A stretch of DNA of 48,249 nucleotides from Promethearchaeota archaeon (GTDB taxonomy: Archaea > Asgardarchaeota > Lokiarchaeia > Sigyniarchaeales > SOKP01): the NCBI GenBank assembly GCA_016840165.1, contig JAEOSU010000047.1:1-48249 (forward strand), given 5' to 3'. A program made the translations under genes and the position numbers. Below the pieces are notes generated by a model, which did not search any database, was not told where the DNA came from, and saw nothing but the letters and a program-made list of their open reading frames with translations. How positions within the stretch are numbered: the first letter of the stretch is position 1; each line of letters starts with the position of its first letter. Positions 31,331 to 34,893 of this stretch are shown piece by piece.

Positions 31331-31735
31331 ATGCTTGATATTATATTAATTCAGCATGATGTTTCAGGAATCAATCTGGTGGAATATCGTCAACCCCATA
31401 CAAAAATTGGGACGGAGCATTCTAATATTTTTAGCGGGTTTCTTTCGGCAATCCAAAATATCACCACTGAATTGAATATTGGAACACTCATTCTCATCTC
31501 AACTGAAGGATCTCGGGGTCATAATTGCATAATCGTGCCTCGTTCGCCGATCAATGTAATTATTTTGGTTGATAGTACTGATCCAATCGACTTATGGCGT
31601 GAACAAGGTCATATCATTGCAGATAAATTCTTTGAGCATTATGGAACCGAGTTTAACCCAAATGATATAAATAAGTTTAGAGATTTTTCCGATACCTTGA
31701 AAGGATTGTGTTCTACTCATGAATATTGTGAATAA
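31331..31735 (+). CDS. Longin/roadblock-like domain protein
   Basis: SGINLV...IFSGFLSAIQNITTELNIG pattern typical of Asgard longin/roadblock-like proteins. Confidence 0.55.
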   Translation: MLDIILIQHDVSGINLVEYRQPHTKIGTEHSNIFSGFLSAIQNITTELNIGTLILISTEGSRGHNCIIVPRSPINVIILVDSTDPIDLWREQGHIIADKFFEHYGTEFNPNDINKFRDFSDTLKGLCSTHEYCE

Positions 31736-31749
31736 TGAATCCTAAACTA

Positions 31750-31757
31750 TTTATAGA
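31750..31757 (+). promoter_or_regulatory. TATA box of the leader peptide-leuS transcript
   Basis: TTTATAGA starts 29 nt before ATG 31779, consistent with a leaderless start. Confidence 0.6.
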
Positions 31758-31778
31758 AAAAAAGGTAGTTACATATTA

Positions 31779-31865
31779 ATGATCTTTAATAACACCGCTA
31801 TAGCAAAGTGTACAAGGGAAAATGAACCTTTAGTCAATTTGCTCGTTGTGTTATTATTATTATAA
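31779..31865 (+). CDS. Putative leucine-sensing leader peptide MIFNNTAIAKCTRENEPLVNLLVVLLLL (28 aa)
   Basis: 7 of the last 11 codons are Leu, ending TTA TTA TTA TTA TAA; directly upstream of leuS. Confidence 0.72.
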   Translation: MIFNNTAIAKCTRENEPLVNLLVVLLLL

Positions 31866-31990
31866 GCGAAACGAATCCACATAACTAATTTCTTTTCTCT
31901 TTTCTGTGGTTCGGTTCGCGTGAAGCATAGATTATAGTTAAAGAAATTTTGGTTAGGGATTTGTTCTCGTAAAATAATAGACCTAATATG
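31866..31990 (+). promoter_or_regulatory. Putative attenuator RNA switch with U-rich tract (31889-31903)
   Basis: Helix 31866-31881/31905-31919 competes with helix 31866-31895/31940-31970. Confidence 0.62.
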
Positions 31991-31998
31991 GGATAATA

Positions 31999-34893
31999 AT
32001 GTATAAAGCACGAGAGATTGAAAAAAAATGGCAAGAGAGATGGGAATCATCAAAAATATTTGATGCTAATCCAGATCCTAATAAAAAAAAGAAATTTATT
32101 ACAATTCCTTATCCTTATGCTTCAGGTACAATGCACATAGGACATGGGAGGAGTTATGTAAATGGTGATATTTTTGCGAGATATTACCGCGCGAAAGGCT
32201 ATAATGTATTATTTCCAATGGCCTTTCATATTACAGGTACCCCTGTATTAGCTATATCTTCTTCCTTAGAGAGAGGGGATAAAGAAACATTTGAGAAGAT
32301 GTGTGACTATGTAGGAATCCATACTTCAAATAAAGAGGAAATCAACAAAATAGTTAAAAGCTTTGTAGATCCTTGGAACATTGTCAATTACTTTTCAGAA
32401 AAAATGAAAGTTGATTTAAAGTCCATAGGCATGAGTTTAGATTGGAGACGAGAATTCACTACTGGAGATAAGATATACAATCAATTTATAGAATGGCAAT
32501 ATTATAAACTAAAAGGTAAAGGTTACTTAGAGAAAGGAGAATACCCAATTCTTTATTGTCCTCGTTGCATGAATGCAGTAGGAGAGGATGATATTGCCCG
32601 TGGAGATGAACTTGATTTAAATATAAATGAGTATACCTGTATTAAATTTCCTTTTGAAGATGGATATTTAGTACCAGCAACTCTACGCCCAGAAACCATC
32701 TATGGAGTGACCAATATCTGGATAAATCCCAATGGACAATATGTCAAGGCTGAAATCAATGGAGAGATCTGGTATATATCAAAAGAAGCTATTCATCTTT
32801 TCGAAAACCAAAATAAGCAAGCAAAAGTCATCAAAACTTTCAAAGGAATAAATTTAGTTGGAAAAAATGCTAAACATATAATTTCTGATCGAAAACTTCC
32901 AATCCTTCCTGGTGATTTTGTAGACACATCCGCTGCTACTGGGGTGGTATATTCTGTTCCTGCTCATGCTCCATTCGATTATATGGCTCTTATTGATTTG
33001 CAAAAGGATACTACAGCAATTCAAAAATACAATTTAGATGAAGAGTTAATATTAAAGATTCGACCAATCAAGATAATAGAACTTGAGGCTATTAATGACA
33101 TTCCAGCTAAGTACTATTGCGAAAAATTCCATGTAAATAGTCAGATGGATAAAGAAAAATTAGATAATGCGACTGCTGAGAATTATCGCGCAGAATTTTA
33201 TAATGGAATCTTGAATGAACGGTGTGATAAATATATGGGTAAGCCAGTCTCTGAAGCTGTTGATCTTGTAATTAAAGAGCTGATAGAGGAAAATAAAGCA
33301 GATAAGATATACATTCCAATCACAAAAGGTCTCGAATGTAGATGTGGAGTGCAAATTATAGTATCAATTTTAAAAGATCAATGGTTTCTAAATTTTAATG
33401 CAGGAAATTGGAAGGAGACTGCTTTCAAATGTTTAAATAAGATGACTATTCATCCGAAAAAGTATCGAACGACCTTTGAAAATGTCTTTAATTGGTTGGA
33501 AAAACGACCATGTGCTCGAAAACGAGGTTTAGGTACTCAATTGCCTTTTGATAAGGAGTGGATTATTGAATCTCTTAGCGATTCTACTATTTACATGAGC
33601 TTTTATACTATTGTCCACCATATCAAGCGGAATCACATAGAGTCTGAGCAACTCACACCTAAATTTTTTGATTTCGTATATTTGAAGAAAGGAAATATAG
33701 ATGAGATATCAAAGGATACAGAAATAGACCATAGTCTATTGAAAAGGATGCAAAAAGAGTTTAATTATTGGTATCCCGTAGATCATCGACATACCGCTAT
33801 AATGCATATTTCTAATCATTTAAGTTTCTATATTTTTCATCATGTTGCGATCTTCCCGGAATTTATGTGGCCAAAAATAATAACTTTGATTGAGCCGGTG
33901 ATAATTGAAGGGCAGAAAATGGGCAAATCAAAAGGAAATGTAATTTCCCTATCAGACATTAAGGAGAAGTATTCTGCTGACTTATTTCGACTATATATTT
34001 CCCATAGCGCAGATTTAGGAATTAATATAGATTGGAAGGAAAAAGAAGTCCAAGTTGTTCGTAATCATATCAACCGATTCTATAAATTTATGAAGGAGAG
34101 AATTGAAAATATAGAAGATTTCGATCTTGGATACGATGATATAAAATCTGACTATACAAAAGTAGTAATTTCAAAAATTACCAGTAATTTTTTGAAAATC
34201 GATGATGCCTTAGAATTTTTTAATTTGAGGAGATATCTTCAGCTTGCTTTCTATGAGACATTCAATTTGATGCAGGAGGCGAATAAAAACCTTGGTAGTA
34301 ATACTGACTTTCAAATCATTTTTAAGTTAGTTTATGAAGATTGGCTTAAGATCCTTTCATTGGCGATCCCCCATCTTTGTGAAGGACTTTGGGAGCTTTC
34401 AAATCATCAAGATTTTATTTCTAAGTCCATCTGGGGTGAATTTAATACTAATTATATTGATAACAACTTGGAAATGGAATTTGAGTACATTTCACAGCTT
34501 CTCGATGACATATCTAATGTAAAAAAAGTCATTAGAGCTGCACATATTAACGAAATCTATATCTATACTGCACCTAAATGGAAAAAAGAAGTTTTAGAAA
34601 TCGTTAAATCTAAAAGAGGAGATTTTAATTCGATAATTTCTGAATTGAAAACACACTCCACTTTAATTAAAAATAAAAAGTCCATACCTTTTATTAAAGA
34701 TCTAATAAAGAAACGTTCATGGGACCTAATAACAAGTGTTGGAAATGAATCTGAAACATTAAAGCGTTATAAATCATATATCGAAGGAAAAGTAAATTCT
34801 AAGATAATTATCAATAGTGACTTCGACCCAGAAAGTAAATTAGATAAAGCACTTCCTAGCAAACCGGCATTATATATAAATATTGAGAACTAA
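31999..34893 (+). CDS. leuS: Leucyl-tRNA synthetase, archaeal/eukaryotic type
   Basis: PYPYASGTMHIGH, TLRPET, SVPAHAP.D, IESLSDSTIY, KMGKSKGN. Confidence 0.96.
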   Translation: MYKAREIEKKWQERWESSKIFDANPDPNKKKKFITIPYPYASGTMHIGHGRSYVNGDIFARYYRAKGYNVLFPMAFHITGTPVLAISSSLERGDKETFEKMCDYVGIHTSNKEEINKIVKSFVDPWNIVNYFSEKMKVDLKSIGMSLDWRREFTTGDKIYNQFIEWQYYKLKGKGYLEKGEYPILYCPRCMNAVGEDDIARGDELDLNINEYTCIKFPFEDGYLVPATLRPETIYGVTNIWINPNGQYVKAEINGEIWYISKEAIHLFENQNKQAKVIKTFKGINLVGKNAKHIISDRKLPILPGDFVDTSAATGVVYSVPAHAPFDYMALIDLQKDTTAIQKYNLDEELILKIRPIKIIELEAINDIPAKYYCEKFHVNSQMDKEKLDNATAENYRAEFYNGILNERCDKYMGKPVSEAVDLVIKELIEENKADKIYIPITKGLECRCGVQIIVSILKDQWFLNFNAGNWKETAFKCLNKMTIHPKKYRTTFENVFNWLEKRPCARKRGLGTQLPFDKEWIIESLSDSTIYMSFYTIVHHIKRNHIESEQLTPKFFDFVYLKKGNIDEISKDTEIDHSLLKRMQKEFNYWYPVDHRHTAIMHISNHLSFYIFHHVAIFPEFMWPKIITLIEPVIIEGQKMGKSKGNVISLSDIKEKYSADLFRLYISHSADLGINIDWKEKEVQVVRNHINRFYKFMKERIENIEDFDLGYDDIKSDYTKVVISKITSNFLKIDDALEFFNLRRYLQLAFYETFNLMQEANKNLGSNTDFQIIFKLVYEDWLKILSLAIPHLCEGLWELSNHQDFISKSIWGEFNTNYIDNNLEMEFEYISQLLDDISNVKKVIRAAHINEIYIYTAPKWKKEVLEIVKSKRGDFNSIISELKTHSTLIKNKKSIPFIKDLIKKRSWDLITSVGNESETLKRYKSYIEGKVNSKIIINSDFDPESKLDKALPSKPALYINIEN

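Follow-up and report, generated by a model that had tools for sequence, protein, structure and literature searches.

A candidate ribosome-gated leader-peptide attenuator ahead of an archaeal leucyl-tRNA synthetase gene

The archaeal-type leucyl-tRNA synthetase gene (leuS) in the window, by which we mean the whole 48,249-nt stretch of DNA analysed here, is preceded by a leader in which a leucine-rich uORF abuts two mutually exclusive RNA folds. We consider it very likely that this leader is a cis-regulatory RNA switch that is sensed by the ribosome. That positions 31750-31998 make up a leader-peptide attenuator of an archaeal kind, ribosome-gated and amino-acid-specific, is, with output and polarity included, a reading that we favour with moderate confidence. 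The leader is a compact system, which joins a gene-matched codon sensor, two covarying rival folds and a U tract that is conserved and agrees with the aCPSF1 signal. It bears on how archaea regulate termination at U tracts, and on a possible use of archaeal transcription-translation coupling for gene control.

Results

Anatomy of the leuS leader

The leader lies between a 134-aa gene and leuS and is made up of the following parts.

31331..31735, + strand: 134-aa gene upstream of the leader, of no known family
31750..31757, + strand: TATA-like box TTTATAGA, 29 nt ahead of the uORF ATG (from sequence)
31779..31865, + strand: uORF of 28 codons, MIFNNTAIAKCTRENEPLVNLLVVLLLL and stop (from sequence)
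31787..31856, + strand: hairpin A, in which 31787-98 (uORF codons 3-7) pairs with 31845-56 (run of Leu codons) (MFE, covariation)
31866..31881, + strand: r2, GCGAAACGAATCCACA, the 5' strand common to helices B (with r3) and C (with r5)
31882..31904, + strand: U/pyrimidine tract, with TTTCTTTTCTCTTTT at 31889-31903 (sequence, fold, composition)
31905..31919, + strand: r3, TGTGGTTCGGTTCGC, the 3' strand of helix B
31940..31955, + strand: r4, purine-rich partner of the U tract in inner helix C (fold, 87.5% paired)
31957..31970, + strand: r5, partner of r2 in outer helix C and rival of r3 (fold, cognate energies)
31982..31987, + strand: CCTAAT, 3' arm of helix D (in the sequence, outside the MFE; weakly supported)
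31999..34893, + strand: leuS, archaeal-type leucyl-tRNA synthetase, 964 aa (TIGR00395, NF008957, Pfam domains)

The leuS product scored 936 bits with TIGR00395 (leuS_arch, cut-off 648.5) and 1095 bits with NF008957. No Pfam family matched the upstream 134-aa gene, whose 3' end (...CSTHEYCE) and place before the leader are kept in several relatives. As the TATA-like box stands 29 nt before the ATG, the usual archaeal spacing from TATA to start, the leader transcript probably begins at the uORF ATG or a few bases from it, which would make the uORF leaderless or nearly so. Hairpin A has the inner pairs AGCAAA/TTTGCT and AAGG/CCTT. The r2 strand begins directly after the uORF stop codon, and the U tract either forms the B loop or pairs with r4 as the 5' strand of a duplex. 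No tRNA or tmRNA gene was found in the window, and no part of it matched Rfam at the gathering score. With E-values up to 10, searching Rfam with the leader returned only chance-level matches to unrelated families (best E-value 1.2). A second close copy of the leader was not found in its own genome.

Folding of the leader RNA

The 204-nt stretch at 31787-31990 folded on the + strand with an MFE of -59.8 kcal/mol (z = -6.57), and none of 200 shuffled sequences did as well. For the - strand z was only -3.25, and the structure therefore belongs to the RNA of the leuS strand. The MFE structure includes A and C. Taken alone, hairpin A gave -21.0 kcal/mol (z = -4.1), hairpin B -16.3 kcal/mol (z = -3.8) and the long helix C -37.2 kcal/mol (z = -6.1). 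Among the leaders of relatives, the MFE was C-type in about three quarters of the species and B-type in the remainder.

A preliminary description of this DNA had paired five helices by hand (A, A', B, C and D). All five are found in the sequence where it placed them, and A, B and C, like the whole stretch, exceeded chance when compared with shuffled controls. Helix A' (31845-51/31879-85) did not hold up, as it showed no covariation and z-scores of +1.2 to +2.3. Helix D (31952-57/31982-87) fared in between: its pairing is present in the sequence, but it lies outside the MFE, and the family-wide signal that links r5 to the start region was weak (z = -3.4). Pairing of the U tract with the start region gave a z of -0.8, and no alternative partners were found for the freed 5' arm of helix A.

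Covariation of the rival helices

A covariance model (R1) was built from the leader core and used to search genomes, and 77 distinct leaders were aligned to it for the analysis of covariation. In these leaders 79% of helix B cells were paired, against 33-49% with the partner slid, and 13 of its 14 pairs had changed on both sides. The figure for helix A was also 79%, against 32-55% with the partner slid; at a slide of +3 as many as 71.5% of cells were still paired, owing to the UUA repeat. The core of the duplex between the U tract and r4 was 87.5% paired. Double changes occurred in five of its eight pairs, with swaps such as ACC/GGU, CCC/GGG and CUCG/CGAG.

RNAalifold on the MAFFT alignment recovered only helix B. 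Because the MAFFT and covariance-model alignments are out of register for r5, helix C was tested by segment-wise energies, in which the duplex energy of each leader's own (cognate) segments is compared with that of segments exchanged between leaders. Cognate duplexes were the more stable for r2:r3, that is helix B (-16.2 against -12.3 kcal/mol, z = -15.3), for the arms of helix A (-12.8 against -9.0 kcal/mol, z = -13.2) and for U tract:r4 (-10.8 against -7.6 kcal/mol, z = -12.2). The same held for r2:r5 (-9.6 against -7.85 kcal/mol, z about -7.3), where lengthening r2 by four alignment columns strengthened the signal (-12.0 against -9.2, z = -9.6). Control pairs (r3:r5, U:r5, r3:r4 and r2:r4) stayed within about 1 of zero. 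The signal for r5 with the start region was weak, considering that 66 segment pairs were tested (-8.6 against -7.7 kcal/mol, z = -3.4).

Orthologous leaders thus covary in A, in B, in U tract:r4 and in r2:r5, with the controls near zero. Since r2 tracks both r3 and r5, B and C are true rivals. The proposal of mutually exclusive folds is borne out in that the two compete for r2 and the U tract, a competition that is conserved across leaders. On geometric grounds, the 18-23 bp of the U:r4 duplex should not fit into the 25-nt loop of B, and this geometry would keep the folds exclusive even without r5, as in genome G002. A stable pseudoknot of B with U:r4 was set aside for the same reason (18-23 bp in a 25-nt loop, with linkers of 2-3 nt). 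Two leuS leaders depart from the common layout. That of G002 (L023/L045) has lost r5 and most of the spacer, and in that of G010 (L011/L122) the uORF stop is shifted 9 nt into r2 (tail ...LLLLLEAE).

The uORF as an amino-acid sensor

The uORF in the window has seven Leu among its last 12 codons, with four TTA codons just ahead of the TAA stop. A uORF frame of 20-32 codons is kept in 76 of the 77 leaders, and a TATA-like 8-mer (at least six of eight matches) stands at the same distance in the same number. Between the uORF stop and r2 the median gap is 0 nt. The composition of the last 12 uORF codons goes with the gene that follows. Leaders of LeuRS genes (n = 44) have about 59% Leu there, against 9.9% in the proteome. 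Ile makes up 41%, against 10.1% in the proteome, in leaders of genes for an FrhB/FdhB-like-TrmB protein (n = 16), and Val 39%, against 5.1%, in leaders before acyl-CoA dehydrogenase/EtfB or small-ORF genes (n = 16).

Five synonymous Leu codons are in use in the uORF tails, so it is the amino acid that is conserved and not one codon. In one LeuRS subclade the tail reads LLQALLQLLL or LLRELLQLLSL, which keeps the Leu count and loses the hydrophobicity. The conserved N-terminal codons of the uORF are the other arm of helix A, and they covary with the tail (NNTA/AVLL, NTTT/VVVL). We argue that the uORF is a sensor of the amino acid and not a by-product.

The U tract and a candidate termination factor

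The loop of B contains 59-60% U, against 34% for the genome. At least two runs of four or more U (U4+) were present in 53 of 79 B loops and at least one in 74, whereas 3.5% of random genome windows had two or more. Per 100 nt, the B loop has 7.3 U4+ runs, and the A-rich spacer that leads up to the gene has 0.15. A helix strand is free to have any sequence, yet the U runs are kept, which points to a role for the tract as such.

In line with the non-bacterial output that the preliminary description had proposed, no bacterial hairpin-plus-U terminator was found at 31650-32100, and the U runs sit inside the loop of B. The signal that FttA/aCPSF1 recognises consists of U tracts (PMC8716108, PMC11616081). 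The KH domains of Methanococcus aCPSF1 mediate its binding to terminator RNA, which needs no fewer than two U4 tracts to be efficient (PMC8716108). The U4+ content of the loop agrees with this reported preference for at least two U4 tracts. Of 25 high-quality genomes of the family, 20 encode a protein above the TIGR03675 cut-off for FttA/aCPSF1, and none above that cut-off was found in the 105-contig assembly from which the window comes. This absence would most simply be an assembly gap. The beta-CASP proteins found in the assembly are a KH-less one of 434 aa (C54:89074-90375) and one of 767 aa (C51), whose 350-aa N-terminus is without assignment.

Order of folding and ribosome position

At equilibrium the full leader favoured C, with means of 10 pairs for U:r4, 7.5 for r2:r5 and 2.5 for B; B exceeded r2:r5 in 17 of 76 leaders. 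C won with or without a ribosome, so any effect of the ribosome must be kinetic. Successive prefixes were folded without a ribosome to model the order in which helices form during transcription. With the transcript ending at r3, B had 11.9 pairs and the U tract was 80% unpaired. With r4 added, B still had 8.9 pairs against 3.5 for U:r4, and C became dominant once r5 was included. While B stood, the U tract was 67-80% unpaired.

Ribosomes were modelled as masks on the RNA. With the A site at the stop codon, codon -1 and codon -2, B was reduced to 2.8, 6.2 and 8.1 pairs, respectively. With the A site at the stop or at codon -1, U:r4 formed 11.0 and 8.5 pairs, respectively, once r4 existed. Masks three or more codons upstream did not change the modelled fold. 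In the model, a ribosome at the end of the uORF would bring the burial of the U tract forward, and the gain would be no less than the time that synthesis of r5 and displacement of B take. The suggestion that ribosome position selects the fold is supported by the models, in which masks at the stop and at codon -1 cut B and let U:r4 form early. Gating of the leuS initiation region, which had been offered as an alternative output, found no support in these models, where the predicted accessibility of that region was flat at 0.54-0.60 throughout. For the U tract, gating by the position of the ribosome is plausible in silico.

Spread of the leader and its reuse before other genes

Searches with the covariance model placed the leader upstream of leuS in 33 of 42 genomes of the genus. 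Across one Promethearchaeota (Loki-type Asgard) family it was found in 88 of 131 searched genomes, from seven genera. In three other families of the same order, 19 genomes were searched and gave no match. No such element was seen in the leaders of more distant LeuRS genes (44-46% identity; other families, L027, L028), nor in LeuRS leaders in other phyla (L047-L050). The model also matched second sites, where the same platform stands ahead of other genes. The platform is a reusable module within one archaeal family, and with at least four kinds of gene behind it in this Asgard family it looks general and not one-off. A reading in which LeuRS binds its own leader as a tRNA mimic was dropped, since unrelated genes have this platform ahead of them too.

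One group of sites (L147, L149-L156, L179, L181, L186-L188, L190, L194 and L197) precedes a gene for a fusion protein of about 474-485 aa, with FrhB/FdhB-like domains, a 4Fe-4S motif and a C-terminal TrmB-type helix-turn-helix. The uORFs here have Ile-rich tails, e.g., MISSNTAKRILVRVLISLSIIILAVLII. Val-rich uORFs, e.g., MLTNNNTKNTLSSVVVVDVVVVLL, were found at L177 and L178 (genus g17) and at L170-L176, L180, L182, L183, L185 and L195. They precede either an acyl-CoA dehydrogenase gene, which at L177 is directly followed by an EtfB-like ORF, or acidic ORFs of 45-65 aa that belong to no known family and several of which end in AW. At L158, L172 and L183 (also L157) the small ORFs behind Val-type leaders are convergent with a gene for a class-I aminotransferase of about 390 aa, whose score is near the cut-off of the LL-diaminopimelate aminotransferase subfamily. 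Read-through from the leader at L158, L172 and L183 would be antisense to this gene.

The genome of the window itself holds a weak second copy of the platform (C54:181390-181543, - strand; 25.9 bits), with the uORF MKFSHHNTTTTWVGYKRAFIPICVVL before an ORF of about 59 aa, and this site is orthologous to the one in G007 (L158). It also encodes a second LeuRS (C63:91900-94674, - strand), which is of the bacterial type, has the motif YVLEMYPYPSGSGLHMGH and is 28.5% identical to the window enzyme over its N-terminal third. Its gene follows a plain promoter and lacks the leader, so control by the leader would be confined to the archaeal-type copy in this genome. In genus g12 (L191, L192, L198) a LeuRS-like gene with a different start (N-terminus ...YKKSEKKWQ..., motif FINFPFPYLNG.PH) carries the leader with Leu-rich uORFs, and some g12 genomes (G116, G128) have the platform at two sites.

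Discussion

How the leader might work

The output of the putative attenuator is probably 3'-end formation that depends on the U tract. During transcription B would form first and hold the U tract single-stranded in its 25-nt loop. Once r5 is made C would win, with r2 paired to r5 and the U tract to r4. A ribosome on the last two codons or the stop would cover r2 and block B, and the emergence of r4 would then be enough to hide the U tract. Under a shortage of charged tRNA-Leu, the terminal Leu codons would be decoded slowly and the ribosome kept over r2. The shorter exposure of the U tract would then mean less premature 3'-end formation at it, whether intrinsic or by FttA/aCPSF1, and the fewer premature ends would leave more leuS mRNA. 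This particular combination of output and polarity, in which leucine scarcity reduces 3'-end formation at the U tract, is a serious possibility, which we propose with less confidence than the switch itself. More tentative still is the view of the leader as one member of a modular family of ribosome-gated transcription attenuators in Asgard archaea, in which leaderless Leu, Ile or Val uORFs would decide between exposure of the U tract to the termination machinery (FttA/aCPSF1 or intrinsic) and its burial.

Several observations sit poorly with this scheme. In the models r2 is masked only if the ribosome stalls at the stop or the two codons before it, and stalls at earlier Leu codons would leave B in place. 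Intrinsic termination at the U tract cannot be prevented by a pairing partner that lies further downstream. No FttA above the cut-off was found in the assembly of the window, and the G002 leader is without r5. A Val-rich leader stands before acyl-CoA dehydrogenase-EtfB, a pair that may be catabolic; catabolic genes are expected to be on when the amino acid is plentiful, so this leader would fit the opposite polarity.

Alternative explanations

The choice between B and C might act on translation instead, as in attenuation of the ermC or mycobacterial poly-Cys type. It would free or trap r5 as the partner of the leuS Shine-Dalgarno/start region, and initiation would be regulated rather than transcript length. 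Helix D does exist in the window, r5 and the start region give their weak cognate signal (z = -3.4), the downstream genes carry strong SD-like sequences, and a stalled ribosome that blocks a structure is proven in mycobacteria (10.1101/834739). We nevertheless regard a translational output as unlikely, since the accessibility of the start region is 0.54-0.60 in all modelled states and the spacer from r5 to the start, at -18 to 132 nt, is poorly conserved. Neither does it fit G002, where r5 is missing, or account for why the loop must be U-rich. Of similarly low probability in our view is the same switch with the opposite polarity, by which an abundance of the amino acid would turn the genes on. 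A fast ribosome at the stop would contact the paused polymerase or cover r2 in time, and there would be no termination; starved, lagging ribosomes would leave the U tract naked and transcription would end. The U tract starts about 16-25 nt past the stop, which is near the contact distance of ribosome and polymerase, the mask at the stop removes B most strongly, and the Val-rich leader of the acyl-CoA dehydrogenase-EtfB pair agrees with genes induced by an abundant amino acid. For a synthetase, however, this polarity would mean positive feedback on poor charging, and it offers no reason for gene-matched codons to be clustered last, where any slow codons would do.

Two further readings dispense with ribosome-gated termination as such. 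The locus could make a functional small hydrophobic peptide, or a stable small RNA that ends at the U tract, with the helices serving RNA stability. Points in its favour are the hydrophobic uORF tails of all classes and the conserved N-terminus M-I-S-N-N-T-A. But covariation ties the N-terminal codons to those of the tail at the RNA level, as the arms of helix A, the one LeuRS subclade (LLQALLQLLL, LLRELLQLLSL) keeps Leu and not hydrophobicity, and both the adjacency of stop and r2 and the rival helices are conserved, which leaves this reading very improbable. That the pairing arose by chance in AT-rich, low-complexity DNA, or that the leader is a repeated or mobile element, we consider hardly credible at all. 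The (TTA)n run does permit slippage of register, such that a slide of +3 pairs 71.5% of helix A cells, yet the shuffle z-scores, the covariation, the lack of another close copy in the genome and the conservation in seven genera all argue against it.

Comparison with known systems

Ribosome-mediated attenuation is a textbook bacterial mechanism, and we found no report of leader-peptide attenuation in archaea in the full-text literature. Bacterial leader-peptide attenuators include leuL-leuABCD of E. coli and Salmonella, the pheST leader, trpL and hisL. The attenuator that we favour for the window shares with them a short leader ORF with a run of codons cognate to the gene, and exclusive helices downstream that have a strand in common, between which the position of the ribosome is expected to choose. 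It differs in belonging to an archaeon, in its leaderless uORF and in having no GC hairpin followed by a U run; here the U tract is looped out in one fold and part of a stem in its rival. Because the regulatory codons abut the shared strand, a stalled ribosome is also predicted to cover that strand instead of freeing it. The missing terminator and this covering of the strand both depart from traits that define the classical family. The Rfam leader families (Leu_leader, other amino-acid leaders and T-box) did not match at the gathering score.

Classical attenuators have been predicted for leuS in Streptomyces, with a Leu-codon leader ORF and antiterminator and terminator hairpins with poly-U (Seliverstov et al. 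2005, PMC1262725). They resemble the present leader in placing a Leu-codon leader ORF before a LeuRS gene, but their architecture is unlike it, and we found no sequence relation. In mycobacteria, leaderless poly-Cys sORFs occur at several loci, where the stalled ribosome blocks a duplex and the RBS of the next gene is exposed (Canestrari et al., 10.1101/834739). Common to both are a leaderless sensory sORF, a ribosome that blocks a duplex (by prediction in our case) and reuse of the design; the gated element here would be a conserved U tract, however, and the predicted accessibility of the start is unchanged.

In tnaC-tnaAB, a ribosome held at the leader stop codon masks an adjacent Rho site. 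The leuS leader is alike in that the stop of the uORF adjoins a single-stranded tract open to use by a termination factor, and in that occupancy of the uORF end matters in the models. Archaea are not known to have Rho, and the candidate factor here is FttA/aCPSF1 instead. T-boxes bind tRNA directly and have no uORF. The T-box leaders of leuS in Firmicutes would be functional analogues that respond to the state of charging, whereas the archaeal leader has a uORF and no T-box match. Set beside these systems, the leader would, if our reading is true, represent a non-bacterial solution to attenuation by which a set of genes is coordinated through the ribosome, and would place ribosome-gated gene control in the closest prokaryotic relatives of eukaryotes.
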